Assembly (NCBI GenBank): GCA_016871575.1
Contig: VHCW01000007.1
Span: 19,616 to 83,615, forward strand
DNA length: 64,000 bases
Source of the DNA: Verrucomicrobiota bacterium
GTDB taxonomy: Bacteria; Verrucomicrobiota; Verrucomicrobiia; Palsa-1439
Reading direction: 5' to 3'
This document shows, one piece after another, positions 2,576-37,797 of this stretch; positions within the stretch are counted from its first letter, which is position 1, and every line of letters starts with the position of its first letter. A model generated the notes under the pieces. That model saw only the letters and a program-made list of their open reading frames with translations, searched no databases and was not told the origin of the DNA. Both the position numbers and the translations under genes were made by a program.

Positions 2576-5500
2576 TCGGTTCCTCCAAAGCACAGAACGT
2601 TACCATCCACCGTGGCGATGTACAACCGGCCGAGCGCGGCGGACAGGCCGTCGAAAACCGGCATTGACGGCAAGGCGCACTCGGAAATCTTTTTGCCATC
2701 GGCGGCGTTGATGATTCTCAGAAAAACGCCTTTCTTGCCGTCAAACGCCGCCCGCGCTTCCGTCTCGTTTGTGAACGCCAGCAGGTCGGGATCTTTCCGG
2801 CCGAGATCAACCGGGCCGGCGACGGCCAGCCGGTCGTTGCCGAGCGCCATGGCGCGGACGATGAGCGATTGCGTGTCGGTCCAGATCGGATCGGGTTTGC
2901 CCGCAGCGGTTCGTTCCATTCCGAACAGCCGGTAGGCATCGGCCTTGTGGCCGACGGGACCGGGGGCAACTTTCTCTCGACCGTAACCGTACACACGGCG
3001 TTCGTCGAAACATAAAATCCGGCCCGCCGGAAACTGGTTGGCAGCGCTCGCCCAGCCACCCCAGCCGGCGCCGGGCATGCCTTCGCCGAGGACCCAGTAA
3101 TTGCGGACGAACCATTCTTCGCCGAGGAAACCGGTGATCGAGAAGGGACGCGGTTTCGCCGTTTCCGTCCGTTTGCCGTAGCGGTCGAACGTGAAATACT
3201 TCAAGAACACCGCATCACCGTCGCCGGAGAGGATGTCGGACGTGGTGCCTTCCATATTGAACTTGGCTTCCGTCGTGAGTTGTTCGCCGGTTTGCGGGTC
3301 GAGATGATAGAGGACGGTCTTCGACAGCTCGCGGCCCGTCGCCGGCTCGAGCCGGTAAAGCACGATGCCGCCGTCCAGATATGTCGAGCGGCCAGCGGTC
3401 GCGTAGAGCGTGTCGTTCTGCACGAGCACCGCCCCGTGAACCGGCCAGAGCGATTCAAGCTGGCCGTACGCTGCGATTAACCGTTCCGCCGGCGCGGCGC
3501 GGAATCGCCAGACCAACGCGCCATCCGCGTCACTCACACAGTAAATCCAGCCATCGGCGGAACCGAAGATGACCATGCCATTATAAATGGTCGGCGAACT
3601 GTCAATGCGTCCACCCGCGGTGAACCGCCAGATCTCCCGGCCATTTGCGGCGGCGAGGGCGTGGACCGTGTGCGCATCGGGCGCGGCCACGAACACTTTT
3701 CCGCCCGCAATCACCGGCTGCGTCAGCCGTCCGCCGAGCGAGGCCGACCATGTTTGTTTCACCGCGTCGGGAATCGCGCTGGCGACCGCGCCGCTGCGGC
3801 GCGAATCGCGGCGGTACGCGGGCCAGTCTTCCGCATTTCGGATTTCGGATTTCGGATTTCGGATTTCCGAATAGGCTGGGCCGCGTTCGAGCACCGGTTC
3901 CTTGGGGAACGGCATCGCGCCGGTCTTGTCGCGTTGCGGCGCGGCGGCGAAGAACCCGGCGACTTTGGAAGTGAGAAAACAGGCGCAGGCATTGGGCGGC
4001 GCGTAGAGAAGGCCGTTGGCCGGCATGATGCCGTACTGGCAGGTGCCGCGAATCCAACTGTTGTTGCTGAGCCAGCAACCCTTGTCGAGACTGAGCACTT
4101 CGATGCCGGATTTGCTGGTGAAGATGAACCGCCCGGTGGCCTTGTTCCGGTAGCAACGATGATGCGCCATGCCGACCTTGGGGGCCTTGGCGTTCATCGT
4201 TTTCGCTGGCGCGCCCGTCTTCAGGTCCAGCCCGTGAAACTCCGGCCCGACCCACACGACGCCGTTGATGACGAACAGGTCCGCCGGCGAGTTGTATCCT
4301 TCCTTGCTCGGCGCCGACCACAATTCCTTGCCGTCCTTCGCCGCGTACGCCCGCAACGTGCTCTTGCCTTTCCGTGGGAACCCCGGTTCGTTCCAGCCGT
4401 GGACGCCCCACGCGACCGTGCCGGCGGCTGGGGCGCCCTCAATATCAAGGTCGGCCAGCAGAATCACATCGTCGGTCGCCACCAATGTCGGCGCGGAGAA
4501 GCTCATGCGCCGCGCGGTGGTCGGGCGCGCGGTTTTCCAAACTTCTTTGCCCGACCGCGCGTCGAGACACACGATTCCGGAGGAACTCTGGTAGTACAGG
4601 CGCGACCCTTTCACCGCCAACGTCAACGGCAGGAGATATTCGTTCCGGGCAAAATCTTTTTTCCACAACGGCTTCGCCGTGGCGGCATCCAGGGCGGTGA
4701 TGAATCGGAAATTCGTCGGCGCCGGTTCGTTGCGCGTAAACAGTCCGCCGCCGGTCCGCTCCGCTTCGGATGTGCCCACGGCCAGATAGAGAATGCCGTT
4801 GTCCGCGATGATCTCTTCCGCCCGCTCGGTGCCCTTGTATTCGCACACGGTCTGGCCGGTCGCCGCATCCAACGCGAGCACCGGTCCCGCGAGGCTCGGT
4901 GTCACGTACACCCGGTCGCCGACCGCCACGAGCCGGCGCGGCAGGTGCGCCGGGCCGGAACGGAAATGGCGCAGATGATCCACCCACGAACTGATGGGAC
5001 GTTTCCACAGCAGCGTGCCGTTGAATGCGTCGCGCGCCACCAGCTTCCAGTCGCCCGTAAACCGGATGAAAGCCAGCGGCGCCTCGTCCACGATGTAGAA
5101 GATGCGCCCTTGCGCCGTGACCGCGGCGCTCATGCTGGCGAGTTCCTCGTGGCTGCGCCCCCACCGCGGCTCTGCCACCCACTGGATCGAGCGCGGAATG
5201 TCCACCACCGAATCCATCGCCACCGCGTTGTTGTCCGGCCCGTGCAGAAAATGCGTCCACTGATCAATCGTCTTCGGCCACGGTTTCACCGTCTTCTTCC
5301 CGCCGATCATCGCCACGCCGCCGGGGACGAGCACCCGCATCACTTCGTCCATTGAAACCGCGCCGGGTTTTTCCGCCACGACCAAGTTCACAAGGTTGTC
5401 CACGTACGGCAACACTCCACCGCTCCATTGCGCCACGCTGACCGGCCCGTACAAGCCGAGCGACTGAATGTGTTTGCGCGCCGCCGTCACGTCCGTGTCG

Positions 5501-5667
5501 AGTCCATGGACGAGAAAGCTGTCGTTGGCGCGCAACGCCACTGTCTGTTTCCCATCGCCGCAGCCGATGTGGACGACGAGGCCGCCCTTGACGCCGGTGT
5601 CCGCGCCGCAAAACGCCGATGCTATTGTAAGCAGAGAAATCAGGCAGGTTAGTAAGAAGGTTTTCAT
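2572..5667 (-). CDS. Paralog P2: signal peptide + class-I SAM-methyltransferase-like fold + split PQQ/BamB-like beta-propeller protein
   Basis: ORF 2572..5754. The start is trimmed to ATG 5667 (MKTFLLTCLISLLTIASAFCG, a signal-peptide-like N-terminus). Motifs seen: VVHIGCGDGKQT, LVHGLD, LPYVDNLVNLVV, MRVLVPGGVA, KPWPKTIDQWTHFLH, HHRCYRNKAT, DWPAYRRD, GGRIDSSPT, WRFRAAP, QLESLWPVHGAVLV. Confidence 0.9.
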   Translation of the reverse strand: MKTFLLTCLISLLTIASAFCGADTGVKGGLVVHIGCGDGKQTVALRANDSFLVHGLDTDVTAARKHIQSLGLYGPVSVAQWSGGVLPYVDNLVNLVVAEKPGAVSMDEVMRVLVPGGVAMIGGKKTVKPWPKTIDQWTHFLHGPDNNAVAMDSVVDIPRSIQWVAEPRWGRSHEELASMSAAVTAQGRIFYIVDEAPLAFIRFTGDWKLVARDAFNGTLLWKRPISSWVDHLRHFRSGPAHLPRRLVAVGDRVYVTPSLAGPVLALDAATGQTVCEYKGTERAEEIIADNGILYLAVGTSEAERTGGGLFTRNEPAPTNFRFITALDAATAKPLWKKDFARNEYLLPLTLAVKGSRLYYQSSSGIVCLDARSGKEVWKTARPTTARRMSFSAPTLVATDDVILLADLDIEGAPAAGTVAWGVHGWNEPGFPRKGKSTLRAYAAKDGKELWSAPSKEGYNSPADLFVINGVVWVGPEFHGLDLKTGAPAKTMNAKAPKVGMAHHRCYRNKATGRFIFTSKSGIEVLSLDKGCWLSNNSWIRGTCQYGIMPANGLLYAPPNACACFLTSKVAGFFAAAPQRDKTGAMPFPKEPVLERGPAYSEIRNPKSEIRNAEDWPAYRRDSRRSGAVASAIPDAVKQTWSASLGGRLTQPVIAGGKVFVAAPDAHTVHALAAANGREIWRFTAGGRIDSSPTIYNGMVIFGSADGWIYCVSDADGALVWRFRAAPAERLIAAYGQLESLWPVHGAVLVQNDTLYATAGRSTYLDGGIVLYRLEPATGRELSKTVLYHLDPQTGEQLTTEAKFNMEGTTSDILSGDGDAVFLKYFTFDRYGKRTETAKPRPFSITGFLGEEWFVRNYWVLGEGMPGAGWGGWASAANQFPAGRILCFDERRVYGYGREKVAPGPVGHKADAYRLFGMERTAAGKPDPIWTDTQSLIVRAMALGNDRLAVAGPVDLGRKDPDLLAFTNETEARAAFDGKKGVFLRIINAADGKKISECALPSMPVFDGLSAALGRLYIATVDGNVLCFGGTE
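3835..3869. repeat. Heptanucleotide tandem repeat (ATTTCGG)x4 plus one imperfect unit, inside the P2 inter-domain linker
   Basis: Read directly: atttcgg atttcgg atttcgg atttcgg atttccg. It encodes SEIRNPKSEIRN between ERGPAY and DWPAY. The unit is the reverse complement of the CCGAAAT/CGAAATC unit in the intergenic elements at 35485 and 37798. Confidence 0.95.
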
Positions 5668-5679
5668 GGCAGTGCGTGA

Positions 5680-5718
5680 GATTCTATCCAACACCACCGG
5701 GAAGACAAGGTTGCAGAG
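5680..5718 (-). promoter_or_regulatory. Conserved promoter-like leader upstream of P2
   Basis: The minus strand reads CTCTGCAACCTTGTCTTCCCGGTGGTGTTGGATAGAATC. It has a -35-like TTGTCT, a 16-nt spacer and a -10-like TAGAAT, with 13 nt between the -10 element and the ATG. The same block lies upstream of P3, P4 and P7. Confidence 0.4.
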
Positions 5719-5759
5719 TTTGACTGATGCAACAAAAACCGTTGAGCAGTTCACAGAGC

Positions 5760-6001
5760 GCGTCCGGGACGGACGCCACTACACCCATCCGTGGTGTAGT
5801 AGCCGCCGTCTCGGCGGCTCTTTGCCCAAGCCATCGAACTGCCTTGAAACATGCCGAGGAAAGCCTCGACCAAGGACAGGGTGTCACGCAAGAAAACGTT
5901 GAAGCGCGGTTTGAAGCGACGAGACGGTGATTTGTAGCTGCGCTTGTGCCAAGCGCAGACTCGGTCGCTCTCCCCACGAAACGGCGCTTCACAGAAGCGC
6001 C
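5760..6001. other. Cluster of five perfect short hairpins in the P3-P2 spacer
   Basis: Stems read directly. H1 5760-5776: GCGTCCG-gga-CGGACGC. H2 5778-5800: ACTACACC-catccgt-GGTGTAGT. H3 5802-5818: GCCGCCG-tct-CGGCGGC. H4 5938-5958: CTGCGCTT-gtgcc-AAGCGCAG. H5 5983-6001: GGCGCTTC-aca-GAAGCGCC. Confidence 0.7.
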
Positions 6002-6047
6002 GCTACAACAACACCCGGTAAAGAAAACACATTCCGCCAAACTTCAG

Positions 6048-9000
6048 TTACGGCTTTCCTTCCAAGCACGCAAGACTGCCGTCTTGCAATGCGATCAGTA
6101 AACGTCCGCCTGCAGCGATCAAGCCGTCGAAGACTGGCGGCACGTTCAGCGCGCTTTCGGCGAGCTTCTTGCCGTCCTTCGCTGACACGGCGACGAGCTT
6201 CGCGCCTTTCTTGCCATCGAGTGCCGCGTATGGGTCTTTCGCGTCAAGTTCGTCGGGCGGGCCAGCGACAAACAACGTGTCGCCGGCTTTGACCATCGCG
6301 CGGATCCGCACCGGCAGGAACGTCTTCCACAACGGCGGCTCCGCGCGCGTGTAGCCGATCATCTTGTCGAGACCGAACGCGGTGTTGTCGAGCTTCTCTA
6401 CGGCGCGTCCGCCGCCGCGCTCGTAATCGGATTGCGGCAACCACTCCACCGGCTTGCGCGCGCCGGTGGGGTCGCCGACGATCTGCGGCTCGTTGGAGTT
6501 CTTGTCGGCGTAGAGCAGATAACCTTCCTTGCCGGGGAAGAACATCGGGCTGTGAACGTTGCGGCGATAGTACGGCTGGACAGCGTAGGTGCGTTCGTTG
6601 TCCACGATGAGCAACTGGCCGCTCTTCGAGGATTGATTTGCCAATTGGAAACCGGGCCAGCGTTTGGCGTACATCCAGAACGCGCGGTTGTACCACGACG
6701 CGTCCAGGAAACCTGACGTCGAGAACACGTGCAGGCCGACATCCTTCTCACCCTTCACAGAAAGATCTTCCTGCTTCTCTTCCCTGAGATCGGGCGTCAG
6801 TTTCTTCTGGCGCATATAGACATAACCGCCTTCGTGGGCCAGCACGTCGGAGTTCGCGCCGGGAATATAGAACGACACCTCGCGGAACGTCTTGCCGTCG
6901 GGGAACGGGCCGGAGAGCGTTGTCTGGTGCTGCAGCTTGCCTGTCGTCGCGTCCAGCGCGTACACGCGAATGCCGCCGTCCAGATACGTCGAGCGGCCGG
7001 CGGTGCAGTAGGCCGCGCCGTCGCTGACCAGCACGCTGCCGTGGACCGGCCAGACCGATTCGAGTTGGTCGTTGACCATGATGCGACGCTCACAAGGCGC
7101 CGCGAGGAACCGCCACGCCAGCGCGCCGTCGTCCGCGCGCAGGCAATAGACGTAGCCGTCCGCGCTGCCGAACAGAACGAGTCCACCGAGAATGGTCGGC
7201 GGCGAATCCACGCGTCCGCCGGCGACGAACGTCCACGCTGTCTTGCCGGTCTTCATGTCCAGCGCGTGGATCGTGTGCGATTCGCGCGCGGCCGCAAACA
7301 CGCGTCCGCCGGCGACGACCGGCTGCGTCAATCCGGCGCCGATCTTGACGCGCCAGGTTTCGGTCAACGTGGTTCCCACCTTGGTGGGCGTCGAGCCGTG
7401 GCGGGCCGGATTGTGACGGAAGGTTGGCCAGTCGTCGGGGTTTCTGCTTTCTGCTTTCTGCTTTCTGCTTTCTGCTCCGTAGGCCGGACCTTTTTGCAGT
7501 CGCTGATTGTCGGGCACCGGCTGGATCTTTGTGGCCGGGCCGATGGCGGTGAAGCCCAGTTTTTTCGCGCCGGGGTCGCAGAAACATTGGTCGGGCGGCA
7601 CGTAGATCATGCCGTTGGCGGGCATGATGCCGAGTTTGCAGGCGCCGCGCACGAAGTTGTGCTGCGAATGGTTGGAGCCGACGACATCCAGGAACTCCAA
7701 GCCTTCCATCGAACTGATGATGAATCGCTCGGTGGCCTTGTTCCGATAGCAGCGATGATGATGCTCCGGGCTGCGCAAGTTCTCGACGAAAAGACGTTTT
7801 CGTTCCTCGCCGGTCCGCAGGTCGTAGCCGATGGCGAGGACGTGGGGGCTTTTGACGTTGGGCGTGCGGTCTTCGTCCACGCCGATCATGTCCGGCCAGA
7901 CGATGCCGCCGATGACGTATAATCCCTCGCTGCCGAGGCCGCGCGCCAGCGGCGCTTCCTTTTTCCAAAGCAACTTGCCGGTGGCGCCATCGCGCGCCTC
8001 CAAGCCATTGTTGCCGAGCACCGCCAACACGCCGTCACACGCCACCAATGTTCGCACTCCGCCGCTTTCGACACCGGTTTGCCACCGGTCAGCGCCCGTT
8101 TTCAAGTCGAGCGCCGTCAGCTTGCCGCCGCCGAAGAACACGATGCGGCCTCCTTCAATCGCCAGCGTGATTCCCTGCACCGCGGGAACGTTCTTGCGCC
8201 AGAGCGCCTTCCCCGTGGCGCCTTCCACGGCGATCAATACGCCCGGCGGACCGCTCTCCTGCGCTTTGCCTTTCCCCTTGCCTTTTTGTCTTGGCAGTTC
8301 GGCGTCGGGTTTTCCTTCCTGCGAATAGACCAACGCAATGCCATCGGCAACGACGATTTGCCGGACCGGCGCGGTGTCCGGGACAGTCGCGACCGTTTTG
8401 CCGGTGGCCGCATCGAGAATCGCCAACGGCGCGCGGTAGCTGAGCGTCGCGTAGAGGCGGTCGCCGTCCACGACGAGCCGGCGCTGGTTTTCATCGGGCA
8501 CAACCGTCCGGCCACCGGTGATTGTCGTCCAGTCGGTGTTGGCGAATCTATCCCCGGCCCACTCCGTCCAGCCCCATTTCTCAATGGGCCGGCGCCAGAG
8601 TTCTTTGCCGTTGAACGCGTCCCGGCACAGCAGCGCCCAGCGCTCCGGCAAGCGCTGGTCGGTGATGCCGATCAATCCCTCGTCGAAAATGTAGAACACG
8701 CGCCCGCCGCCGCAGACCATCGCCTGGAAACCCGACGGCGTTTCGTGGCTGCGCAACCACAGCGGCGGCGCCATCCATTGCAACGAGCGCGGCGCGCCGA
8801 CGCGCGTGTCGCGGGCGACAGCGTTGTTGTTCGCGCTGTGCAGGAAATGCGTCCACTCATCAATGTCCTTCGGGCGCGGCTTGACCGTCTTCTTGCCGGC
8901 GATGAGCGCGACGCCGCCCGGCGCGAGCACGCGCATCAGCTCGTCCATCGAGACGCCGCTGGGCTTGTCCGCGACAATCAAATTCACCAAGTTCTCCGCG

Positions 9001-9287
9001 TATGGCAACACGCCACCACTCCATCGCTCCACGCTGACCGGCCCGTACAATCCGAGCGACTGAATGTGCTTGCGCGCGGCGGTCACGTCCTTGTCGAGGC
9101 CGTGCACGGTGAAACGGTCGTTGGCGCGCAATGCCGCCGTTTGTTTTCCGTCGCCGCAGCCGATGTGGACGATGAGGCCGCCTTTGACACCGGTCGTTTT
9201 GAGGATGGCTTTGGTCTGCTCCGCGCTGCGCGCGTGCGGCATTGAAGCCAGCAGAAGAACAAGGGCGATTGACAGGTTGGTGTTCAT
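6048..9287 (-). CDS. Paralog P3: signal peptide + methyltransferase-like fold + split PQQ/BamB-like beta-propeller protein
   Basis: ORF 6048..9575. The start is trimmed to ATG 9287 (MNTNLSIALVLLLASMPHARSAEQTKAILKTTGVKGGLIVHIGCGDGKQT). It has the same motif series as P2 (HHHRCYRNKAT, DWPTFRHN, WRFLAAP, QLESVWPVHGSVLV). Confidence 0.9.
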   Translation of the reverse strand: MNTNLSIALVLLLASMPHARSAEQTKAILKTTGVKGGLIVHIGCGDGKQTAALRANDRFTVHGLDKDVTAARKHIQSLGLYGPVSVERWSGGVLPYAENLVNLIVADKPSGVSMDELMRVLAPGGVALIAGKKTVKPRPKDIDEWTHFLHSANNNAVARDTRVGAPRSLQWMAPPLWLRSHETPSGFQAMVCGGGRVFYIFDEGLIGITDQRLPERWALLCRDAFNGKELWRRPIEKWGWTEWAGDRFANTDWTTITGGRTVVPDENQRRLVVDGDRLYATLSYRAPLAILDAATGKTVATVPDTAPVRQIVVADGIALVYSQEGKPDAELPRQKGKGKGKAQESGPPGVLIAVEGATGKALWRKNVPAVQGITLAIEGGRIVFFGGGKLTALDLKTGADRWQTGVESGGVRTLVACDGVLAVLGNNGLEARDGATGKLLWKKEAPLARGLGSEGLYVIGGIVWPDMIGVDEDRTPNVKSPHVLAIGYDLRTGEERKRLFVENLRSPEHHHRCYRNKATERFIISSMEGLEFLDVVGSNHSQHNFVRGACKLGIMPANGMIYVPPDQCFCDPGAKKLGFTAIGPATKIQPVPDNQRLQKGPAYGAESRKQKAESRNPDDWPTFRHNPARHGSTPTKVGTTLTETWRVKIGAGLTQPVVAGGRVFAAARESHTIHALDMKTGKTAWTFVAGGRVDSPPTILGGLVLFGSADGYVYCLRADDGALAWRFLAAPCERRIMVNDQLESVWPVHGSVLVSDGAAYCTAGRSTYLDGGIRVYALDATTGKLQHQTTLSGPFPDGKTFREVSFYIPGANSDVLAHEGGYVYMRQKKLTPDLREEKQEDLSVKGEKDVGLHVFSTSGFLDASWYNRAFWMYAKRWPGFQLANQSSKSGQLLIVDNERTYAVQPYYRRNVHSPMFFPGKEGYLLYADKNSNEPQIVGDPTGARKPVEWLPQSDYERGGGRAVEKLDNTAFGLDKMIGYTRAEPPLWKTFLPVRIRAMVKAGDTLFVAGPPDELDAKDPYAALDGKKGAKLVAVSAKDGKKLAESALNVPPVFDGLIAAGGRLLIALQDGSLACLEGKP
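7441..7475. repeat. Heptanucleotide tandem repeat (TTTCTGC)x5, perfect, inside the P3 inter-domain linker
   Basis: Read directly: five consecutive tttctgc units. They encode AESRKQKAESRN between GPAYG and PDDWPTF. Confidence 0.95.
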
Positions 9288-9294
9288 TGGCGTA

Positions 9295-9334
9295 GTTATG
9301 ATGCAACACCGCCAGCAAGGCAAGGTTGCAACAA
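9295..9334 (-). promoter_or_regulatory. Conserved promoter-like leader upstream of P3 (diverged copy)
   Basis: The minus strand reads TTGTTGCAACCTTGCCTTGCTGGCGGTGTTGCATCATAAC. It aligns with the P2/P4/P7 leader (TTGCCT, 16-nt spacer, TCATAA). Confidence 0.3.
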
Positions 9335-9344
9335 CAGGAACCAG

Positions 9345-9867: not shown

Positions 9868-9891
9868 GGTGTAAGGTGTAAGGGGTTGTAA

Positions 9892-10906: not shown

Positions 10907-13545
10907 GCGGGCTGCGGGTTACCCATGCTCTGGGCGACGTGCTTGGAATAAACCTGAACGCCGAACGTGGTCGTCTCGTTGAACACCAGAAGCTGCGCGC
11001 CGGCTTGGTTGACGTCCCAGTCCGAATAATGCCAGGCGGTCCGGTTGAACGCCGAGTCGTCGAGCAAATCGCTGGTCGAGGTGAGCCGCAAGCCCGACGA
11101 GTCCGTGAACGACCGTTTCAACGCAGCGTCAAATTTGATCTGGCGCAAATAAATCGAGGTGCCGTCGCTGACGAGAACTTCGGAGCGCGCGCCCGGCATG
11201 TTGCGCGAGCCGCCGTTGTCAACGTTCACGTCGGGATACGGTCCCTCGACGCGCGCGTCGTGCAGCAGCTTGCCGGTGAACGGATCAAGCGCCGACAAAA
11301 AGATGCCGCCGTCCAAAAACGTCGAGCGACCGGCGGCGACGTAAGCGATTCCGTTTTGCACCAACACCGTTCCGTGCACCGGCCAGACGGATTCGACCTG
11401 GTTCATCGCCACGAGCCGGCGATCCGCCGGCGCGGCGCGGAACCGCCACGCGAGCGCGCCGTCGGAAACCTGCACGCAATAGACCCAGCCGTCCGCAGAA
11501 CCGAACAGCGCCACGCCGCCGTGAATTGTCGGCGGGCTGTTCACGCGCCCGCCGGCGGTGAAGCGCCAGAGTTCGCGCCCGTTTTTCGCGTCGAGACAGT
11601 GAACTTTCGCGGCGTTAATCTCCGCGACGAACAGTTTGCCATCGGCCACGACCGGCTGGCTCAGCTTGCCGGAGAGCTTCGTCTGCCAGAGTTGGTTCAC
11701 GCTGGCGGGCACTGCTGCGGCTGTGCGTCCGCTGCGCTTGCAATCGGCGCGGAAGGTTGGCCAATCGGACTCGTGACTCGTGACACGTGAAACGTTGCCG
11801 TAGGCAGGACCTTTCTCAAAACGCCCTTCGGCGATTGACTTCGGCGCCGAGCCGCGGGCGGAGAGCGCGTTGAAGCCGTTGAGTTTGACGCCGGCAAAAC
11901 AGGAACACTGATGCGGGCCGACGTAGAGCAGGCCGTTGCACGGCAGGATGCCGTATTTGCAGGGGCCGCGATACCAATCGTGCCGCATGTTCTCGTTGCC
12001 CTCGAGATCAATGAACTCCGCGCCTTGCTTCGGCCAGATCAGGAAACGCTCGGTCGCTTTGCTCCGGTAACAACGATAATGATGCCACGGGTTGATGAGC
12101 TGCTTCAGGTCAATCGTCCGTCGCACCGCGCCCGTCATCAGGTCGCGTCCGCTGGTGCTCTGGCCGGACCAGACGAGGCCGGCCGTGACGAAAAGGTCCG
12201 GCGGATTGCTGACGCCCGGGCCTTTCTTGGCGTCGGTCTTCCACAGGGACTTGCCGGTCTCGGCGGCGAAGGCTTCCAGGTTGTTGCCGGCAAACAGCAC
12301 CACGCCGCGATGAACAATCAATGTGTTTGGTCCCGCGTAGAGATTGCCGTGGCTGGCAGAACTCGGCGCGCGCCATTGCACCGCGCCGGTCGCCAGGTTC
12401 AGGCAAACGAGTTCCCGGTAATTGTGGTAATAGACGCGCTGCCCGTCGGTGGCGACGCACAGCGGCACCACTTCGCCGGCCTCGGTTCGCCAGATGATGT
12501 CGCCCGTGGCGGCGTTGATCGTCAGCAACCGGTTGCTGACGGATGGCGCTTGCGGAGGCGCTTCTGTCACGACCGCGCGCTTCTTGCCTCTCTTTCCCCC
12601 GGCCTTGCTCTTCACGTCGCCCTCGCCGGATGGACGCTCTTGGCGCACACAGACCACCAGCTTGTCTTTCGCGCAAAGGATTTCATCGGCGTATTCTGTT
12701 CCGGAAATGTTCCGGAGCGCCTGGCCGGTCGCCGCATCGAGAACGCTCACCGGCGCGTTGTAACCGAGCGTCACGTAAATCCGCTCGCTGTCGCAGACCA
12801 GCCGCCGCGGCAACGTCGCCGGCGAACGCACCCGGTGCGCCTTGATGTTCGTCCAGTCCACGCCGGCCAGTTCGTTCTTCTTCCATTCCGGCCAGCCCCA
12901 GTTTGGCAGCGGCACCTTCCAGAGGAGCACGCCGCTGAAAGCGTCGCGCGCCACCAGCGCCCATTTCTGCGGCAACCGCTCGTCGGCGACGCCCGTCGGG
13001 CCTTCATCGAGAATGTAAAACAGGCGACCGCGCGCCGAAACGATGGCGCTGATGCTCGAATCCGTTTCGTGAGTGCGACAATAGAGCGGCTCGGCGAACC
13101 ATTGCAGTCCTTTTGTCGGCCCGACAACTTTGTCGTTCGCAACCGCGTTGTTGTCGGCGTCGTGCAAGTAGTGCGTCCACTCGTCAATCTCCTTCGGCCA
13201 CGGCTTCACCGTCTTCTTCCCGCCGATGAGCGCCACGCCATTCGGCACGAGCACCCGCATTACTTCCTCCATCGAAACAGCGCCGAGTTTGTCCGCGACA
13301 ACCAGGTTCACAAGATTGTCCACGTAAGGCAGATGTTTGCCGCGCCAGTTAGTGAGGCCGTCCACGAGGAAACTGCCGCTGGCGCGCAACTCAGCCAGCA
13401 ACTTCTCGTCGCCATGCCCGAGATGGACGATGAGGCCGCCTTTGATACCGGCGGTCGAGAGGATTTCATTGGCCCGCTCCGCGCCATGAAGCAACGGGGC
13501 CAGCGCCAGCAAAAGAACGAGGATGGTTCGCAAGATGGCTTTCAT
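10885..13545 (-). CDS. Paralog P4, C-terminally truncated by the mobile element (probably non-functional or shortened)
   Basis: ORF 10885..13707. The start is trimmed to ATG 13545 (MKAILRTILVLLLALAPLLHGAERANEILSTAGIKGG). Homology to the paralogs stops near ...LLVFNETTTFGVQVYSKHVAQS. The last residues (GNPQPAGSTLDT*) are read out of the element's hairpin and inverted repeat. The roughly 170-aa C-terminal part present in the other paralogs is missing. Confidence 0.8.
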   Translation of the reverse strand: MKAILRTILVLLLALAPLLHGAERANEILSTAGIKGGLIVHLGHGDEKLLAELRASGSFLVDGLTNWRGKHLPYVDNLVNLVVADKLGAVSMEEVMRVLVPNGVALIGGKKTVKPWPKEIDEWTHYLHDADNNAVANDKVVGPTKGLQWFAEPLYCRTHETDSSISAIVSARGRLFYILDEGPTGVADERLPQKWALVARDAFSGVLLWKVPLPNWGWPEWKKNELAGVDWTNIKAHRVRSPATLPRRLVCDSERIYVTLGYNAPVSVLDAATGQALRNISGTEYADEILCAKDKLVVCVRQERPSGEGDVKSKAGGKRGKKRAVVTEAPPQAPSVSNRLLTINAATGDIIWRTEAGEVVPLCVATDGQRVYYHNYRELVCLNLATGAVQWRAPSSASHGNLYAGPNTLIVHRGVVLFAGNNLEAFAAETGKSLWKTDAKKGPGVSNPPDLFVTAGLVWSGQSTSGRDLMTGAVRRTIDLKQLINPWHHYRCYRSKATERFLIWPKQGAEFIDLEGNENMRHDWYRGPCKYGILPCNGLLYVGPHQCSCFAGVKLNGFNALSARGSAPKSIAEGRFEKGPAYGNVSRVTSHESDWPTFRADCKRSGRTAAAVPASVNQLWQTKLSGKLSQPVVADGKLFVAEINAAKVHCLDAKNGRELWRFTAGGRVNSPPTIHGGVALFGSADGWVYCVQVSDGALAWRFRAAPADRRLVAMNQVESVWPVHGTVLVQNGIAYVAAGRSTFLDGGIFLSALDPFTGKLLHDARVEGPYPDVNVDNGGSRNMPGARSEVLVSDGTSIYLRQIKFDAALKRSFTDSSGLRLTSTSDLLDDSAFNRTAWHYSDWDVNQAGAQLLVFNETTTFGVQVYSKHVAQSMGNPQPAGSTLDT
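11769..11789. repeat. Short heptanucleotide repeat (ACTCGTG x2 + ACACGTG) in the P4 linker
   Basis: Read directly: actcgtg actcgtg acacgtg. It encodes ...VSRVTSHES just before DWPTF. Confidence 0.75.
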
Positions 13546-13557
13546 GTTTGTGTGCGT

Positions 13558-13596
13558 GATTCTATCCGACGCCGCCGGGAAGTCGAGGCCGCAAAG
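13558..13596 (-). promoter_or_regulatory. Conserved promoter-like leader upstream of P4
   Basis: The minus strand reads CTTTGCGGCCTCGACTTCCCGGCGGCGTCGGATAGAATC (TCGACT, 16-nt spacer, TAGAAT), with 13 nt between the -10 element and the ATG. Confidence 0.4.
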
Positions 13597-13675
13597 CCGT
13601 CCATCGGCGCTCGGAAGACGGATTGACGCGGTGGACTGAATTCGGTACTGTATTCGGGCCGATGGAAGACATGCC

Positions 13676-13960
13676 ATGAAAATGAAAGAAGACATTCGTC
13701 CCGTCACCTACCTGAAGAGCAAGGCGGCGGATTTGTTGGCGCAGATCAACGCCACGCACCGGACAGTCATCATCACCCAGAACGGGGAAGCGCGGGCCGT
13801 GCTCCAGGATCCCGAAAGCTACGAACAGATGCGGCGCGCGATCGGCTTGCTCAAACTCGTCGCGCAGGGGGAATCGGACGTGCAGGCCGGACGCACGCTG
13901 GCTGCCGACAAGGTGTTTGCCGGCTTGCGCAGAACGCTGATCGCCCGCCGCGCGTCCTGA
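13676..13960 (+). CDS. Phd/YefM-family antitoxin
   Basis: 94 aa. The sequence ...RPVTYLKSKAADLLAQINATHRTVIITQNGEARAVLQDPESYEQM... is the typical Phd/YefM N-terminal fold signature. It lies immediately upstream of a ParE-like ORF (1-nt gap). Confidence 0.85.
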   Translation: MKMKEDIRPVTYLKSKAADLLAQINATHRTVIITQNGEARAVLQDPESYEQMRRAIGLLKLVAQGESDVQAGRTLAADKVFAGLRRTLIARRAS

Positions 13961-13961
13961 C

Positions 13962-14294
13962 ATGGCACCGTCCCGGTCTTACGCGGTCGAGTTTGCCGTC
14001 GTGGCGCAGCGCGATTTGCAGGTCATCATCGAATTGATCGCCACGGAAGATCCCGTTGTCGCCGGGCAGGTCTTGGACCGGATTGAATCGCGTTGTGCGG
14101 ACCTGAAGAAGATGCCGCAACGCGGACGTGTGGTGCCGGAACTGGCTGCGTTTGAGATTTACACCTACCGGGAATTGGTTGTGGCGCCGTGGCGAGTGGT
14201 TTACCGAATCAGCGGCAACGGCGTTTATGTTCTGGCGGTGTTGGATGGGCGGCGCAACGTGGAGGACATCCTGCTGGCTCGGTTGGTTCGATGA
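13962..14294 (+). CDS. ParE/RelE-superfamily toxin
   Basis: 110 aa. It contains ...DLQVIIELIATEDPVVAGQVLDRIESRCADLKKMPQRGRVVPEL...YRELVVAPWRVVYRISGNGVYVLAVLDGRRN, the typical ParE core. Confidence 0.85.
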   Translation: MAPSRSYAVEFAVVAQRDLQVIIELIATEDPVVAGQVLDRIESRCADLKKMPQRGRVVPELAAFEIYTYRELVVAPWRVVYRISGNGVYVLAVLDGRRNVEDILLARLVR

Positions 14295-14314
14295 GTGGGA
14301 AGGTGAATTCGTTT

Positions 14315-17300
14315 CTAACGTCCCAAACACACCAGCCGGCCATCGGTTGTGGCAACAAAGAGCCGGCGGTTGGCGGCGGCGATGCCGTTGAGCACCGGCG
14401 GCGAATCGAGCTTCAATTCGGAAACTTTCTTTCCGGTGGCTGAATCCACGGCGTACAGCAGTCCGCCCAGCCGTCCCTCAAACGCGCCGAGCGGGTCCTT
14501 CGCGTCCACGACATCCGGCGGCCCGGCGACAAAGAGCCGGTCGCTGGTCTGCGCCATCGCGCGCACGCGCACGGGAATTCGCAACGACCACGATTCCTTT
14601 TTCGTGCCGACGTTCTTCGCGAAGAGCAGGTAACCCTTCGCGCCGGGCGTGAAGAAGACCGTCGGGTCGAGTCCCTTCAACGAATCAAACTGGCGGACGT
14701 AATAGACCGACTGCTTGTCGTGGACGATGAGGTTGCCGTAGTCGGCTTGCTTGCCGAAGGACCACGGCGTTCTCTTGAAATACGTCTCGTCAAGAAAACC
14801 GCTGCGGGGTGACAGCTCCGTGTCGCCGCGCTGTCGTTTCAACTCCGCATCGAACGCCAACGACCGCATGAAGACGAGTTTCCCGTCGCCCATCATGACA
14901 TCGGAGAGCGCGCCCATCGGCAGTCTGAAGTTCGAATCGAATTCCGCCGGGCCATCGGGAGGTTGCGGGCACATCACCAGTTTGCCGGCGGTGTTGACGG
15001 CGTAATCGGGGCCTTCGAGTTTGTTTTGATGCAACACTTGTCCCGTCGCGGGATCGAGGCCGAAAAGATGGATGCCGCCATCGAGTTCCGACGACCGGCC
15101 GGCGCTGACGTAGGCTTTGCCGCCCTGTGCCAGCACGCTGCCGTGAACCGGCCACGCCGATTCAAGCTGGCCATACACGGTGATGAGCCGTTCTTCCGGC
15201 GCGGCGCGGAACCGCCACGCGAGCGCGCCGTCACTGGCGCGCACGCAATACGCCCAGCCGTCGGCGGAACCGAACAACACCGCGCCATTGTGCCACGTCG
15301 GCGACGAATCAATCCGTCCGCCGGCGGCGAACTCCCAGAGCTTCTTTCCATCGCGCGCGTCGAGGCAGACGACGTGATGCTCGTCTGGAATCGCGACGAA
15401 CACACGGTCGCCGACGACAATCGGCGGCGTGGCGTTGTTGCCGAGCTTGACGCTCCACACCGGCGCGGCGTTGTCGGGAACTTGCGTGTTCACCGAGCCG
15501 GTGCGCGCGGCATCGCGGCGGAACGTCGGCCAGTCGGAATCGGTGAGTGGTGAGTGGTGAGTGGTGAGTTCAAAGGCCGGGCCGCGTTCGAGCCGTTCTT
15601 CTTTCAACTTGCTGCTTTCTGCTTTCAGCTTTCGCTCTGGCGCGAGCGCGAAGAAGCCGTTGAGTTTCTCCTCGATGTAGCAGGCGCACGGGTGCGGCGG
15701 GACGTATTGGAGGCCGTTCGCCGGCATCATGCCGACGTGGCAAGTGCTCCGGACCCAGTTGTGGACGGTGTGCTTGCCTTCCTCCAAGTCCACGTACTCG
15801 GTCCCGCGCCGGCTGGCGAGGATGTAGCGCGTCGTTGCCTTGTTTCGGTAACAACGATGATGATGGTGCGCCTTGAAGATGGAGCCGACGGGCACTTCTT
15901 TCTTCTGCGCGCCGGTGTGAAGGTCGTACCCGTTCACTGACTTGGGCCAAGACGTGCGCTGTTTTCCCTTTTTGCCGCCTTCAAACTCTCCCGCTTCCAA
16001 CTCCGCGCTCCACGTCCAGACGAGATCGCCGATGACGAACACGTCCTTCCACGAATACCAGAGGTGACCGATGTATTTCTTCGGCTGACTCCAAAGCACC
16101 TTGCCGGTATCGGCGGAGAGCGCGGCCAGTTTCGCGGGACTGGCGTGGAGCACGACGCCATCGCGCACGATCATCGTGCCGACCCACAAGTTTCCGCCTT
16201 CGCCGCGTTTCTTGTCGTCGTCATCCAACGGAAATGCCGAGCGCCATTTCTCCGTGCCGGTGCGGGCGTCGAGGCAGACAATCTCCGGGCCGTCAATCAA
16301 CGCCACCACTTTGCCATCGGTGGCAATGTTGCTCGCGGGATCAAGCTTCGGAACCGTGGGGCTGATCGGCGTAATCACCCACTTGATGTAGTCGGTCGTG
16401 GTGCCCTTGAAAGTCTTTGCGCTCGTCCAGAGCATTTTGCCGGTTGCGGCGTTCACCGCCATGACTTTGACTCCGTCGCCGGAGAGGACGGATAAGACCA
16501 ATACGCCGTTATGGAAAAGGATTTCGTTGGTGCGTTCCGTGCCGGCGTAGGTCTGAAGGATTTCGCCGGTGCGCGCGTCGAGTTCGGTGACGGGCGCTTG
16601 ATAGCCGAGCGTCACGTAAACCTTGTCGTCCGACGCGACGAGCCGCTTCTGGATGTTGAGCGGGATGTCGCCGGGACGGCTGTTGAACCAAGTGTCCTTC
16701 CACTCGCGCCAGCCCCAGCGCCGGATCGGCACTTTCCATAGCAACACACCGTTGAACGCATCACGCGCGATGAGCGACCATTTGTCCGGCAGTGAATGCT
16801 GTCCCGCGAGGCCGATGGGCGCTTCGTCCACGATGGCGAACAACCGGCCTTGCGCGGTGACGAGCGTGCTGACGCTCGAATCGGTCTCGTGATCGCGCAA
16901 CCACATCGGGCCTTCGATCCACTGGTAATGTTTCGGCGGACCAACGACGCTGTCGTTGGCGACCGGGTTGCCGTCGGCGCCGTGCAGGTAATGCGTCCAC
17001 TCGTCAATCTCCTTCGGCCACGGCTTCACGGTCTTCTTGCCGCCGATCATCGCAACTCCATTCGGCACGAGCACGCGCATCACTTCGCTCATCGGAAGTT
17101 TGCCGAGCTTGTCGGCGACAACCATGTTCACCAGATTGTCGGCGTACGGCAATCGCTCGCCCGTCCACGGCGCCACCGACACCGGCCCGTACAAACCGAG
17201 CGCGCGGATATTCTTGCGTGCATCCGTCACGTCCGCATCAAGGCCGTGAACGACAACGTTCTCGCTCGTTCGCAGCGCGGCAGTTTGCTTGCCGTCCCCG

Positions 17301-17350
17301 CAACCGAGGTGAACGACGAGACCGCCTAATATGAGAGCAAGGAATGTCAT
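14315..17350 (-). CDS. Paralog P5: methyltransferase-like fold + split beta-propeller, without a normal signal peptide
   Basis: ORF 14315..17494. The start is trimmed to ATG 17350 (MTFLALILGGLVVHLGCGDGKQTAAL), which forms an ATGA overlap with the P6 stop (17347..17349). It has the same motif series (HHHHRCYRNKAT, DWPTFRRD, WRFRAAP, QLESAWPVHGSVLA). Confidence 0.85.
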   Translation of the reverse strand: MTFLALILGGLVVHLGCGDGKQTAALRTSENVVVHGLDADVTDARKNIRALGLYGPVSVAPWTGERLPYADNLVNMVVADKLGKLPMSEVMRVLVPNGVAMIGGKKTVKPWPKEIDEWTHYLHGADGNPVANDSVVGPPKHYQWIEGPMWLRDHETDSSVSTLVTAQGRLFAIVDEAPIGLAGQHSLPDKWSLIARDAFNGVLLWKVPIRRWGWREWKDTWFNSRPGDIPLNIQKRLVASDDKVYVTLGYQAPVTELDARTGEILQTYAGTERTNEILFHNGVLVLSVLSGDGVKVMAVNAATGKMLWTSAKTFKGTTTDYIKWVITPISPTVPKLDPASNIATDGKVVALIDGPEIVCLDARTGTEKWRSAFPLDDDDKKRGEGGNLWVGTMIVRDGVVLHASPAKLAALSADTGKVLWSQPKKYIGHLWYSWKDVFVIGDLVWTWSAELEAGEFEGGKKGKQRTSWPKSVNGYDLHTGAQKKEVPVGSIFKAHHHHRCYRNKATTRYILASRRGTEYVDLEEGKHTVHNWVRSTCHVGMMPANGLQYVPPHPCACYIEEKLNGFFALAPERKLKAESSKLKEERLERGPAFELTTHHSPLTDSDWPTFRRDAARTGSVNTQVPDNAAPVWSVKLGNNATPPIVVGDRVFVAIPDEHHVVCLDARDGKKLWEFAAGGRIDSSPTWHNGAVLFGSADGWAYCVRASDGALAWRFRAAPEERLITVYGQLESAWPVHGSVLAQGGKAYVSAGRSSELDGGIHLFGLDPATGQVLHQNKLEGPDYAVNTAGKLVMCPQPPDGPAEFDSNFRLPMGALSDVMMGDGKLVFMRSLAFDAELKRQRGDTELSPRSGFLDETYFKRTPWSFGKQADYGNLIVHDKQSVYYVRQFDSLKGLDPTVFFTPGAKGYLLFAKNVGTKKESWSLRIPVRVRAMAQTSDRLFVAGPPDVVDAKDPLGAFEGRLGGLLYAVDSATGKKVSELKLDSPPVLNGIAAANRRLFVATTDGRLVCLGR
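15542..15569. repeat. Heptanucleotide tandem repeat (GGTGAGT)x4, perfect, in the P5 linker
   Basis: Read directly. It encodes LTTHHSPLT before DSDWPTF. Confidence 0.95.
15614..15634. repeat. Second heptanucleotide tract (GCTTTCN)x3 in P5, 45 nt from the first
   Basis: Read directly: gctttct gctttca gctttcg. It encodes KLKAESSKLK. The unit is related to the P3 tract unit (GCTTTCT in another register). Confidence 0.8.
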
Positions 17351-20300
17351 TTGTTTTCTCCGTAGCAAAGCACCGTGCCGTCTGACATGGCGACGTAAAG
17401 CCTGCCGTTCGCGGCGGCCATGCCGTCGAAGACGGGCGGAGCGGACAGCTTGATTTCCGACACCTTGCTGCCGTCCTTCGTCGAAACCAACCACAACACT
17501 GCGCCGAGCCGTCCCTCAAACGAACCGTACGGATCGGTGGACGGCACAATGTCCGGCGGCCCGGCCAGCGCAAGATGTTCGCCGGCGACAACCATTGCGC
17601 GGACGCGGACGGGAATCTTCCCCTGCCAGCGCGGCGGTTTCTGGCGCTGGAACATGCCGATTCTGCCTTCGGTCCCTTCGCTTGATTCGTTGGCGTTGTC
17701 GTCGGCGATGAGGTCGTAGCCGTCCCTGCCGGCGGTGAAGTGCGGGCTGCGGCTGAATTGCGTGTTGAAATATTTCACCGCGTACGTGGTGGCGTTGTCG
17801 AATACAAGCATCTGTCCCTGCTTCGGCGCGCCGATGGCAAATTGCGCGCCCGGCCAGTGCTCGGAATACATCCAGTAGAGCCGGTCGAAACCGGAATCAT
17901 CGAGAAACCCGCCGGTAGCCAACAGGCGGCGATCGGTCTTGCGCACGCCCGAAGCGGCGAGCATCGGCGCGTCGAGCTTGTTGAGTTTCAGGTCGAACAC
18001 GTATTGGAGCATGAAGAGCTTGTCGCCGCTGCACACGAGGATGTCGCTGCTCGTCCCCTCCATCGCATGCGGATGACGTTCCTTCGCCGGGACAGTCCAC
18101 GGGCCGTCGAGGTGTTGCTGGTAGAGTTGCTTGCCGGTGGCCACGTCGAGTCCGTAGAGATAAATCCCGCCATCGAGGAACGACGACCGTCCTGCCGAGC
18201 AGTACGCCACGTTGTCTTTCACCAACACGCTGCCGTGCACCGGCCACGCCGATTCGAGGTGGCCGTACGAGACAATGATCTTCTTGCGAGGCGCCGCCTC
18301 GAAACGCCACGCGAGTTCGCCATCGGCGGCGTTGAGACAATAGACCGCGCCGTCGGCGCAACCGAACAGCACGCGTCCTTGCGCGATGGTCGGCGGCGAA
18401 TCCACCGGCCCTCCGGCGATGTAGCTCCAACGTTCCCCTCCGGTCTCGGCGTCGAGACAATAGACGGCGTGCGAGTCTTTTCCGCCGACGTAGAGCGATT
18501 TGCCCGCGATCACCGGCGCAGTGATGCGTCCGGGAAGTTTCGCCGACCAAGCTTGGTTCAGGTTGGCGGGCAGACTTGTTCCGGCGTTTCCGCTGCGCGC
18601 GTTGTCTTTGCGGTACGTTGGCCAATCGTTGCTGGTGAGTGGTGAGTGGTGAGTGGTGGAGTAGGCTGGTCCCCGTTCCAATCGCTCAGTGGTCGTGGCT
18701 TGTTGTTCGCCGCTTGTCGTGAACGCGTTGAAGCCGTTCATCTGGACGCCGGGCTGGCAGCGGCACGGCGTGGGCGGGACGTAAAGGAAACCGTTCGCCG
18801 GAACAAAACCGGAACGGCAGACCGTGCGGCACCAATCGTTGCCCGAATGATTCTTGTCCGTCCGAATGTCCACAAACTCAACGCCGCGCTTCGACCAGAT
18901 GAGATAATCCTCGGTCGCCTTCGAGCGGTAACAGCGCGGATGATGCCCGGCGGTGAACAACTCGCCCACATCAATTGACTTCGCGATTTCTCCGGTCTGG
19001 AGATTCAATCCCTTGGTCGTCATCGTGCCGGCCCACGCGAGGCCGTTGGCGACCATCAAGTCCGGCACGCCGCGAAAGCTCGAGCCGATCACCTCGCTCG
19101 TCCGCCACAACAACTTGCCGTCGGCAAGCGAGTGGACGTTCAGGCCGTTGACCACGAACAACACCTTGTCGCCTGCCATCAACAGCGACGCGCCCATCTG
19201 GGCGTCGTTGTTCTGCCGAGAGTTCACCGGCGTCTTCCACCGCTCCTGGCCAGTCTGCAAATCAAGCGCCGTCAATTCTTCCGCGTTCAAAAAACAGACG
19301 CCCCTCTTCGTTGCCGCCAGCGATAACGGAAGCATCCGTCCCCCCGGTTTCTTCCAAAGCGTTTTCCCGGAACTCAACTCGATGGCCACGACGTTCGCTT
19401 CCGGGAATTGACGGGCTGGCGCGGCGGCTTTCTTGACTTTGCCCTTGCCCTTGCCGGCGGCAGTTGCCGGTTGGGGACGTGGTCCGTCGGGAATCACGCA
19501 AACTCGCGCCACGAGAATGCCGTCGCATACGACGATCTCCTCGGTGGTGGCGGTATCGGCAAACTCGCGCAACGTCTTGCCGGTGACGGCGTCCAGTTCA
19601 CTCACCGGCGCGCGATAGCCCATCGTCATATAAACGCGGTCGCCCACGGCCACGACGCGCCGCGTCACCGTCGGCGGCAACGCCCACATTTCTTCTTTCG
19701 GAATGGCGAGGAACGGAATCCGTCCCGCCTCCCAAAAGCTGGGGCCCCATTTCGGAATCGGACGCTTCCAAAGCTGAACGCCATTGAAAGCGTCTTGTGC
19801 AATCAACGACCACTTGTCCGGGAACCGTCGTTCCGCCGGCGGCAACGGCGTGTCGTGAACGCCCGTCGGCCCTTCGTCCTGAATGCTGAAAATCCGCCCG
19901 CCGGCCGTGACCACTACGGCGACGCTGATGTCCACTTCGTGACTCCGGCACCAACGCGGCGCGCTGACCCATTGCAGTTGACGCGGCGGCCCAACTTTCT
20001 TGTCCTGCGAGACCGGGTTGCCGGAAGCGTTGTGCAAATAGTGCGACCACTCGTCAATTTCCGGCGGACGCGGCTTGACGATTTTTTGACCGCCGACGAG
20101 CGCGGTGCCGTTCGGCACGAGCACGCGGAGCGCCTCGTCTTTTGGGATCTGACTCCCTTCGTTGACGATGAGCGTGTTCACCAGATTATCGGTGTACGGA
20201 AGGCGGCTGCCACTGAGAATGTCGGCGAAGACGGAGCAACGGCGAAGCGCGTTGCAGGTCTTCGCGTCCGGAGCAAGACAGTGGACGAGGTTGCCCTGCT

Positions 20301-25273: not shown

Positions 25274-25279
25274 AAGTTT

Positions 25280-25318: not shown

Positions 25319-25359
25319 CTTGCTTCGAGATGCCGTGTGCAATTAGACTGCCGGGCGCT

Positions 25360-37793: not shown

Positions 37794-37797
37794 AGAT

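Follow-up and report, generated by a model that had tools for sequence, protein, structure and literature searches.

We analysed a 64,000-nucleotide (nt) stretch of contig VHCW01000007.1 from a Verrucomicrobiota bacterium (hereafter the window), in which five members of a seven-gene paralog array, P2 to P6, carry tandem repeats of a 7-nt unit inside the linker between two beta-propeller domains. These tracts are probably stable, translated heptanucleotide simple sequence repeats (SSRs) in a permissive, length-constrained inter-propeller linker, where they are inherited, exchanged between paralogs and sometimes replaced. They belong to a class of 7-nt arrays dispersed through this genome and many large environmental genomes, whose features are found in the window: a period-7 excess, occurrence of the AAATCCG unit at unrelated intergenic loci, and short direct and inverted arrays. 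The first-pass annotation had taken the tracts for candidate contingency loci switched ON and OFF by slipped-strand mispairing, a reading that comparison of the linkers across ~200 relatives largely refutes.

Heptamer tracts in the linkers of a seven-paralog array

The window has a G+C content of 62%. Given that its closest relatives, uncultured Verrucomicrobiota, show a best protein identity of 83-84%, its own species is not represented in the collections compared. Open reading frame (ORF) calls, Pfam and paralog alignment delimited the array at 1..25342, with all seven genes on the minus strand: P1 (<1-~2600), P2 (2572-5754), P3 (6048-9575), P4 (10885-13707), P5 (14315-17494), P6 (17347-20415) and P7 (21395-25342). 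The encoded proteins combine a signal peptide (in all but P5), a degenerate S-adenosylmethionine-methyltransferase-like domain and two PQQ/BamB-like beta-propellers (Pfam PQQ_2, E = 1e-29 to 1e-37). An AlphaFold2 (AF2) model of P2 had a predicted template modelling score (pTM) of 0.81, and its top PDB fold matches were BamB and tandem-propeller proteins.

Tandem Repeats Finder and a separate perfect-run scan both recovered the heptamer tracts of P2-P6 where they had been reported, in excess over shuffled sequence, and the paralog alignment confirmed that all of them lie at one shared position, between GPA[YF] and DWPx[FY]R. The P2 tract (3835-3867) comprises 4.7 copies of the plus-strand unit ATTTCGG with 100% matches; in the sense orientation its linker (3829..3870, aa 629-642, SEIRNPKSEIRNAE) holds (GAAATCC)x4 + GAAAT, 33 nt, and with the degenerate end units the array extends to 6 units, that is 42 nt or 14 codons. 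P3 carries plus-strand TTTCTGC x5.1, again with 100% matches, at 7441-7476, corresponding to a perfect (GCAGAAA)x5.1 in the linker at 7434..7478 (GAESRKQKAESRNPD). The P4 tract (11768-11790; plus-strand GACTCGT x3.3, 93% matches) is a decaying CACGAGT-type array of 3.3 units in the linker GNVSRVTSHES (11767..11799) of a gene disrupted downstream. For P5, plus-strand GGTGAGT x4.0 at 15542-15569 (100% matches) is a perfect (ACTCACC)x4 in the linker at 15536..15571 (ELTTHHSPLTDS), and for P6, plus-strand TGGTGAG x3.7 at 18633-18658 (100% matches) is a perfect ACTCACC-type array of 3.7 units in the linker STTHHSPLTSN (18628..18660). The sense-strand units are accordingly AAATCCG (P2), GCAGAAA (P3), CACGAGT (P4) and ACTCACC (P5 and P6), the latter two genes having an identical unit and diverged flanks. 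A second P5 array (15596-15633, minus strand; plus-strand unit TTCTGCT, degenerate x5.4, 77% matches) is of GAAAGCA type, the unit family seen in P3, and occupies a variable segment ahead of the RLERGPAF motif; the same segment bears arrays in the related loci L046, L077, L219 and L260.

Period-7 self-identity reached 0.73-0.91 in the P2-P6 linkers, against a background mean of 0.25 and a 99th percentile of 0.46. Degenerate traces had also been proposed for the two outer paralogs. A weak trace is present in the P1 linker (812..841, minus strand; ATCGCAA/ATCAACA/ATCTCAA, self-identity 0.52-0.60), but the P7 linker (23425..23472, minus strand) has no significant period-7 signal, its value of 0.37 being matched by 8% of background windows. 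Perfect period-7 runs of at least 20 nt numbered 6 in the window versus 0.0 in 200 dinucleotide shuffles, and runs of at least 17 nt numbered 9 versus 0.19; a scan of the window for periods 4-6, 8 and 9 gave no comparable perfect runs. Arrays in the window range from 2.6 to 5.1 units, and those built of GCAGAAA, ACTCACC or CACGAGT were found within the 64 kb in family genes only. The linker translations agreed with those first proposed, the tracts reading through the frames, and the frameshift logic was likewise upheld: a change of 1 or 2 units in either direction would truncate P2-P6 20-255 residues past the tract, before propeller 2, and a change of 3 units (±21 nt) would retain the reading frame. 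As RNA the coding tracts are predicted to be unstructured (folding z = -1.2 to +1.4).

We also noted that the longest ORF of P5 shares 148 nt with the 3´ end of P6 (17347-17494) and that P5, the paralog without a signal peptide, has its likely start, MTFLALILGG.., directly after P6. Because this start comes right behind P6, P5 may be truncated at its N terminus or coupled to P6 in translation.

The linker is a family-wide array hot spot across Planctomycetota, Verrucomicrobiota and Lentisphaerota. Of 89 linkers from 80 related loci, 18 contained a perfect period-7 run of at least 17 nt, and run density was 2.7 per kb in the linker versus 0.042 per kb in the remainder of the same 80 loci. This 64-fold difference favours the alternative raised in the first-pass annotation, that the linker tolerates and attracts the heptamer repeats of the genome. 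About 14 of the 21 runs scored outside the linker fall in other variable segments of the family genes. A second hot spot is the RVLAPNGVA/KPWPKEIDEW junction between the methyltransferase-like domain and the first propeller (L046, L052, L053, L071, L073, L079 and L017; the counterpart in the window is IGGKKTV, ~aa 150-160 of P2-P7), where the inserts are 14 residues long, exactly +7 aa (21 nt, or 3 units), as in FINPQSAIRNPKLV and LLNPKSQIQNPKLQ. A third is the stretch ahead of RLE+GPAY (RLEKGPAY), the site of the second P5 tract. The linker itself measures 11-16 aa in 107 of the 119 P2-like proteins scored, and ~105 of 120 orthologues have no clear 7-residue repeat there, yet keep its length. 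It is modelled by AF2 with low confidence and mostly as coil, with mean predicted local distance difference test (pLDDT) values of 47-57 over 10-residue blocks.

Reading frame, unit number and turnover of the tracts

OFF alleles were sought without reference to the upstream reading frame, by searching for AAATCYRx3 followed by GAYTGGCC within 20 nt. This frame-blind search returned 29 family linkers in genomes and 39 in metagenome contigs (some contigs being in both), all of them in frame. No OFF allele was detected in either set of tract-bearing linkers (0/29 and 0/39) or among the 80 family loci (0/80), all 80 of which align in frame across the linker. Together with the constancy of unit number in orthologues and samples, these counts speak against the proposed ON/OFF switching by slipped-strand mispairing. 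Candidate OFF alleles in the form of split genes were discarded, since the five arrays situated where one ORF ends and another starts are boundaries between unrelated neighbouring genes. Half-proteins were discarded as well: the C-terminal halves P0121 and P0132 come from short contigs, and P0144 belongs to a tract-free cluster.

Unit-number heterogeneity between orthologues or samples was not observed; unit number is the same at 79-83% amino-acid identity, where tracts differ only through point changes, and from sample to sample. P2 and its orthologues in that identity range (P0001-P0005 and L312) have linkers of 13-14 residues. The arrays of P2 and P0005 align unit for unit, with 4 of 42 nt different, mostly through CpG transitions, and 4-fold degenerate sites differing at 40%; P0002 and L312 have one codon fewer than P2 at the degenerate array edge. 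In L205, the orthologue of P3 carries an array of the P3 unit family, with two codons different at the edges. Tracts are the same in L201 and L202, identical among L203, L204 and L205, and identical also within the pairs L292/L304, L293/L330 and L307/L345; where contigs of one species came from different samples, the tract of every paralog was identical. Where lengths did differ, they did so in frame: examples are a gain of 7 aa at the N-terminal junction, +28 aa in P0022 relative to P0019, and a multi-array linker of 62 residues in L241 against 14 residues in L244. At 3.3-5.1 units, the window tracts are short of the range of the documented heptanucleotide switches of H. influenzae, whose tracts number 8-14 units within ORFs and 13-38 within promoters and differ from strain to strain, some alleles being frameshifted (PMC2651432). 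Contingency loci are in addition expected to switch reversibly at a rate of at least 1e-5 per division without selection (PMC11868660). Unit range, variation and OFF alleles, three defining features that were tested, do not support placing the tracts among contingency loci, and on these comparisons we reject that assignment.

Alignments of orthologues instead showed arrays that are stable in unit number and decay through point substitution. Turnover is also seen, as clusters of at least 90% identity mix members with perfect arrays and members with decayed or unrelated linkers. L003 and L206 have flanks that are 96-97% identical, yet one carries (GCAATCG)x5 and the other an unrelated 40-nt sequence; the place taken by a perfect (AAATCGA)x3.7 in L207 is filled in L208 and L209 by a decayed array with a different unit. 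Within the P2 orthogroup, P0006 and the P0007 cluster carry a decayed ACTCACC-type linker (SPLTTHDSPT), not one of AAATCCG type. Near-identical arrays were moreover found in diverged paralogs of one genome: in L003 and L072 (71% and 53% identical to the P2 query), in L046 and L053, in the two paralogs of L047, and in P5 and P6 of the window. The initial claim that simple inheritance cannot explain the tracts therefore needs dividing: the P2 and P3 tracts are inherited unit for unit, but replacement and exchange between paralogs also occur.

We propose that the arrays would arise at the DNA level, either through slippage by 7 nt at proto-repeats or as copies of other arrays. The simplest reading of their spread between paralogs is gene conversion in short patches, running through the conserved flanks GGNCCNGCNTAY and GAYTGGCCN, although this is an inference on our part. 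Selection would then admit only net lengths divisible by 3, and would require a unit that is stop-free on the sense strand and encodes a hydrophilic, unstructured peptide. At 3-5 units, the arrays would be too short for frequent slippage and would serve as ordinary linker sequence, not as switches.

AAATCCG arrays in other genomes and repeats elsewhere in the window

Exact (AAATCCG)x4 arrays were found in more than 120 species-representative genomes, from Verrucomicrobiota, Planctomycetota, Acidobacteriota, Chloroflexota, Bacteroidota, Deltaproteobacteria and Patescibacteria, among others. Long ORFs contain 53 of 136 such arrays (~40%), and none splits a gene (0); those in ORFs usually read ..KSEIRNPKSEI.., with 47 in the sense and 12 in the antisense orientation. 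Isoleucyl-tRNA synthetase (IleRS) has an in-frame array at the same site in two Phycisphaeraceae species (L099, 4892-4920, and L151). Other essential hosts, likewise in frame, are arginyl-tRNA synthetase (L118), a class I tRNA ligase with the array ahead of its anticodon-binding domain (L081) and DNA polymerase I, in the 5´-exonuclease domain (L124). The canonical block in these essential genes of unrelated phyla is a 32-33-nt (AAATCCG)x4.7. Since switching in such genes would be lethal, this type of tract is tolerated as ordinary coding sequence. Rather than being private to the family, identical tracts are common elsewhere, essential genes included. The P5/P6 unit is similarly widespread, with (ACTCACC)x3 in more than 120 species including cultured isolates. 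One (ACTCACC)n array, in L443, reads STTHHSPLTTH and falls between the catalytic loop (HRDLKPxN) and the DFG motif of a Ser/Thr protein kinase, a further heptamer array in a loop of a conserved enzyme.

Across many phyla, AAATCCG arrays have a fixed phase, starting with AAATCCG and ending with ..AAAT(C). Their perfect-run length peaks at 32-33 nt (11 codons) and drops sharply above 34 nt, with a small echo at 40 nt, and the 33-nt tract of P2 is a canonical member of this class. Length and phase hold regardless of whether the DNA is coding, and they recur in assemblies that are complete or built from long reads (for example L121, 33 nt). Other units in the same loci have length modes of 19-20, 26-27 and 32-33 nt, followed by a cliff. 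Control ACTCACC arrays from the same collection, by contrast, spanned 21-348 nt with uniform phases, so that the AAATCCG regularity can be put down neither to assembly nor to a trait common to heptamer repeats. This range and the long-read example in L121 also dispose of an assembler artefact as the source of the 33-nt length. No flank or target consensus was found around AAATCCG arrays. In AT-rich genomes of the candidate phyla radiation, a fresh CG-containing block adjoins decayed, AT-shifted heptamer arrays, and 25 of 73 non-coding arrays (34%) have an inverted partner 50-100 nt away. Carriage by phages was set aside because only 10 of 2.9 million viral contigs contained (AAATCCG)x4. A filter for units free of stops and starts is too weak to be the reason for the recurrence of one unit, 590 of 1170 heptamer classes being stop-free on both strands and 276 of them also start-free. 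A pure insertion model was rejected for IleRS and for the family, where the array substitutes a loop of similar length and does not add 33 nt.

In the window, the P2 unit AAATCCG also forms intergenic arrays at 35487-35512, 37798-37814 and 37874-37899. These contribute to two predicted plus-strand hairpins, an intergenic one at 35480..35605 with inverted arrays (CGAAATC)x3.7 ... (TTTCGGA)n (-49.9 kcal/mol, z = -4.7) and an intercistronic one at 37795..37910 with inverted AAATCCG/CGGATTT arrays (-53.5 kcal/mol, z = -7.8). Each lies directly 5´ of one of two neighbouring genes that encode large membrane proteins and have their real starts near 35604 and 37909, and the hairpins could be candidate 5´-untranslated-region or intercistronic elements of regulation or processing. 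Repetitive extragenic palindromic (REP) units are imperfect palindromes able to fold into hairpins; of the arrays in the window, the intergenic inverted ones form hairpins, and the coding tracts are solo arms without structure.

A connection to REP elements was considered because the window contains a gene resembling a REP-associated tyrosine transposase (RAYT). This 330-aa ORF (9896-10888, minus strand) has an IS200-like Y1 transposase domain (Pfam Y1_Tnp, 1.3e-11), and its top NCBIfam match is REP-associated tyrosine transposase (REP_Tyr_transpos), with a score of 59.7 bits that falls short of the 80-bit cut-off. Inverted GGGGTCAACTCT repeats flank the ORF on both sides (9892-9903 and 10895-10906), and a short heptamer array (9866..9896; (AAGGTGT)x2.6 plus a 10-nt repeat) lies directly 3´ of it. 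Mobilisation of the arrays by this RAYT, as REP sequences or their paired form (REPIN), is not supported, since the flanks of the gene are inverted GGGGTCAACTCT and not heptamer arrays.

The RAYT-like ORF stands at the exact point where the homology of P4 to its paralogs ends. P4 is a disrupted gene that lacks the final ~130 residues of the second propeller; a search for the missing C-terminal homology downstream of 10894, in every frame, found none. The segment 9575-9840 still codes for the tail of a P7-like C-terminal domain (..VGYWVSSVISDFSAVEIAKE versus ..VGYYVMNAVTEFSPVEIK in P7), and P4 carries the most decayed tract among the tract-bearing paralogs. Farther along the window, a ~40-nt element occurs in two copies 550 nt apart (60599-60638 and 61149-61188), each containing the near-palindrome GGTTAACAT(C/A)TTAACC, called by Tandem Repeats Finder as a 21-nt period. 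It is located upstream of a 744-aa ORF (61218-63452) and could be an operator-like site. An Rfam scan of the window matched no family.

Alternative explanations and known heptamer systems

That slippage switches each paralog ON and OFF, giving combinatorial expression of a secreted family, appears highly improbable. The tracts are perfect and non-triplet, lie inside ORFs of a multigene family with signal peptides, and would on gain or loss of 1 or 2 units truncate the product ahead of propeller 2, and intragenic heptanucleotide switches are known in H. influenzae (PMC2651432). None of the ~68 linkers recovered blind to frame was OFF, however, whereas with 10% of alleles OFF finding none in 60 would have P ~0.002; the tracts are shorter than those of H. 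influenzae, do not change in unit number among orthologues or samples, are of a type found in single-copy essential genes, and are missing altogether from many orthologues. A selected nucleic-acid or peptide element, whether a heptad-binding site on DNA or mRNA or a translational pause between the propellers that aids co-translational folding, is unlikely. It would account for arrays that remain perfect while synonymous sites diverge, for fresh perfect arrays that replace decayed ones at the same spot, for the strong 5´ or intercistronic AAATCCG hairpins in the window and for a length and phase of AAATCCG arrays that are fixed in different phyla. Heptads of 7 bp in contiguous series are recognised by proteins of the ribbon-helix-helix type, for instance omega of pSM19035. 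A further point for such an element is the binding of CspB to heptamer repeats (PMC4679880). Yet the units differ widely among paralogs and orthologues (AAATCCG, GCAGAAA, ACTCACC, GCAATCG and others), most orthologues preserve linker length without a clear 7-residue repeat, the coding tracts have no RNA structure, and no candidate binding protein was identified.

Active insertion of preformed ~33-nt blocks, written or transposed by a mobile or template-directed system (such as a REP/RAYT-like HUH transposase) into a merely tolerant linker, seems doubtful to us. The start, end and 32-33-nt length of AAATCCG arrays are fixed in more than 120 species with unconserved flanks while the control unit ACTCACC has no fixed length, fresh CG-containing blocks stand next to decayed arrays in AT-rich genomes, whole linkers are replaced, the inverted partners of 34% of non-coding arrays are REPIN-like, and the window has a RAYT-like Y1 transposase. 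On the other hand, this gene is flanked by a different inverted repeat and scores below the NCBIfam cut-off, replacements hold loop length roughly constant with no 33-nt gain, the P3, P5 and P6 units have no fixed length, viral contigs hardly ever contain the array, and the cases within the family are explained by gene conversion between paralogs. For IleRS, a single-copy gene, replacement of the loop is not explicable by paralog gene conversion. We tentatively entertain, as possible, a narrower version in which AAATCCG-type arrays would be discrete ~33-nt (11-codon) cassettes, installed and reinstalled over decayed copies in many phyla by a conversion-type or template-directed mechanism; because 33 nt make a whole number of codons, their entry into coding DNA would be in frame. 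If true, this would explain why the translated ..KSEIRNPKSEI.. appears at domain boundaries and in loops of essential enzymes, and with the highest frequency in the family linker. We nevertheless consider stable, translated SSRs in a permissive linker the probable account, with several observations weighing against it. Simple slippage does not predict the fixed 32-33-nt length and phase of AAATCCG, and replacement of a whole linker between flanks of 96-97% identity needs a mechanism to account for it. The tracts of P2 (33 nt) and P3 (36 nt) have stayed perfect though synonymous sites of the orthologues differ by 30-40%, which suggests homogenisation or constraint beyond plain neutral filler. 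Consensus assemblies, finally, favour the majority allele, and a minority OFF subpopulation could persist unseen.

Among known systems, cyanobacterial short tandemly repeated repetitive (STRR) heptanucleotide sequences were reportedly found by Vioque in 1997 inside the RNase P RNA gene. As in that case, dispersed heptamer arrays here sit where a functional gene tolerates them and leave it intact; the phylum and units differ, and reading frame is irrelevant for the STRR host because its product is an RNA. Rickettsia palindromic elements (RPEs), said by Ogata et al. in 2000 to be ~100-150 bp long, confined to one genus and inserted in frame in protein genes, are also short repeated DNA translated at permissive sites of unrelated proteins, essential ones included, but the coding arrays described here are solo, non-palindromic heptamers of 20-36 nt in many phyla.

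Our literature search returned general background only; neither heptamer repeats of Planctomycetota or Verrucomicrobiota nor heptamer arrays that are translated turned up in it. Among long SSRs, heptanucleotide repeats rank first in abundance in many genomes, according to Mrazek 2007 as cited in two later papers (PMC4679880, PMC4692102); these propose slippage as their origin and state that function and transfer mechanism are not known. Like the long heptanucleotide SSRs of large GC-rich non-pathogen genomes in those accounts of Mrazek 2007, the arrays studied here are perfect beyond chance, spread over many loci as mostly short arrays and found in free-living bacteria; unlike them, as there described mainly intergenic, they are translated via three frames at a conserved linker, orthologously stable and recurrent across phyla. 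The GGGAATC/GGGGAYT repeats of Xanthomonas and Nostoc (Rehm et al. 2015, PMC4692102) share an AATC-containing heptamer, a preference for ~4 units, inverted hairpin pairs and proximity to ORF ends. They are G-rich, with their ~4 units ascribed to G-quadruplex (G4) formation, and under-represented in coding DNA (PMC4692102), whereas AAATCCG cannot form a G4, yet prefers 4-5 units, and ~40% of the sampled arrays are in ORFs. The TAACTGA repeats of Beggiatoaceae, cyanobacteria and Bacteroidetes (MacGregor 2015, PMC4679880) similarly involve one heptamer in 2-6 copies in unrelated phyla with no known transfer mechanism, and often lie just 5´ of start codons (PMC4679880), as do the window arrays at 35.5 and 37.8 kb. 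TAACTGA is largely barred from ORFs because its forward orientation contains stop codons, whereas the units here are stop-free in the sense orientation and translated. H. influenzae tracts (the hmw1A/hmw2A promoters; intragenic AATTTTG and AACAACC; PMC2651432, PMC8262952) resemble ours in having a 7-nt unit, sometimes in an ORF, of which one copy shifts the frame, but they have 8-38 units, vary between strains and include frameshifted alleles, against 3-5 units here with neither variation nor a frameshifted allele seen. To our knowledge, what is new relative to described SSRs and STRRs is the systematic in-frame translation at one conserved protein linker across phyla, the presence of arrays within essential enzymes, the orthologous stability of unit number, the sharing between paralogs, the wholesale replacement and the fixed length of one unit type.

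These observations indicate that, in environmental bacteria, a non-triplet repeat in an ORF does not suffice for calling a contingency locus; the number of units and their stability in comparisons have to be checked, as automated "phasome" predictions on metagenome-assembled genomes could otherwise over-call such loci. The fixed 32-33-nt length and phase of AAATCCG, together with wholesale linker replacement, offer a testable handle on the origin and spread of heptanucleotide repeats. A repeat process acting on DNA provides proteins, aminoacyl-tRNA synthetases included, with sequence for linkers and loops. Reading of the units through three frames yields 7-residue peptides (IRNPKSE, AESRKQK, THHSPLT, IGNRQSA and ILHPSSF), and array translation accounts for low-complexity peptides of this type in Planctomycetes-Verrucomicrobia-Chlamydiae (PVC) and other environmental proteomes.

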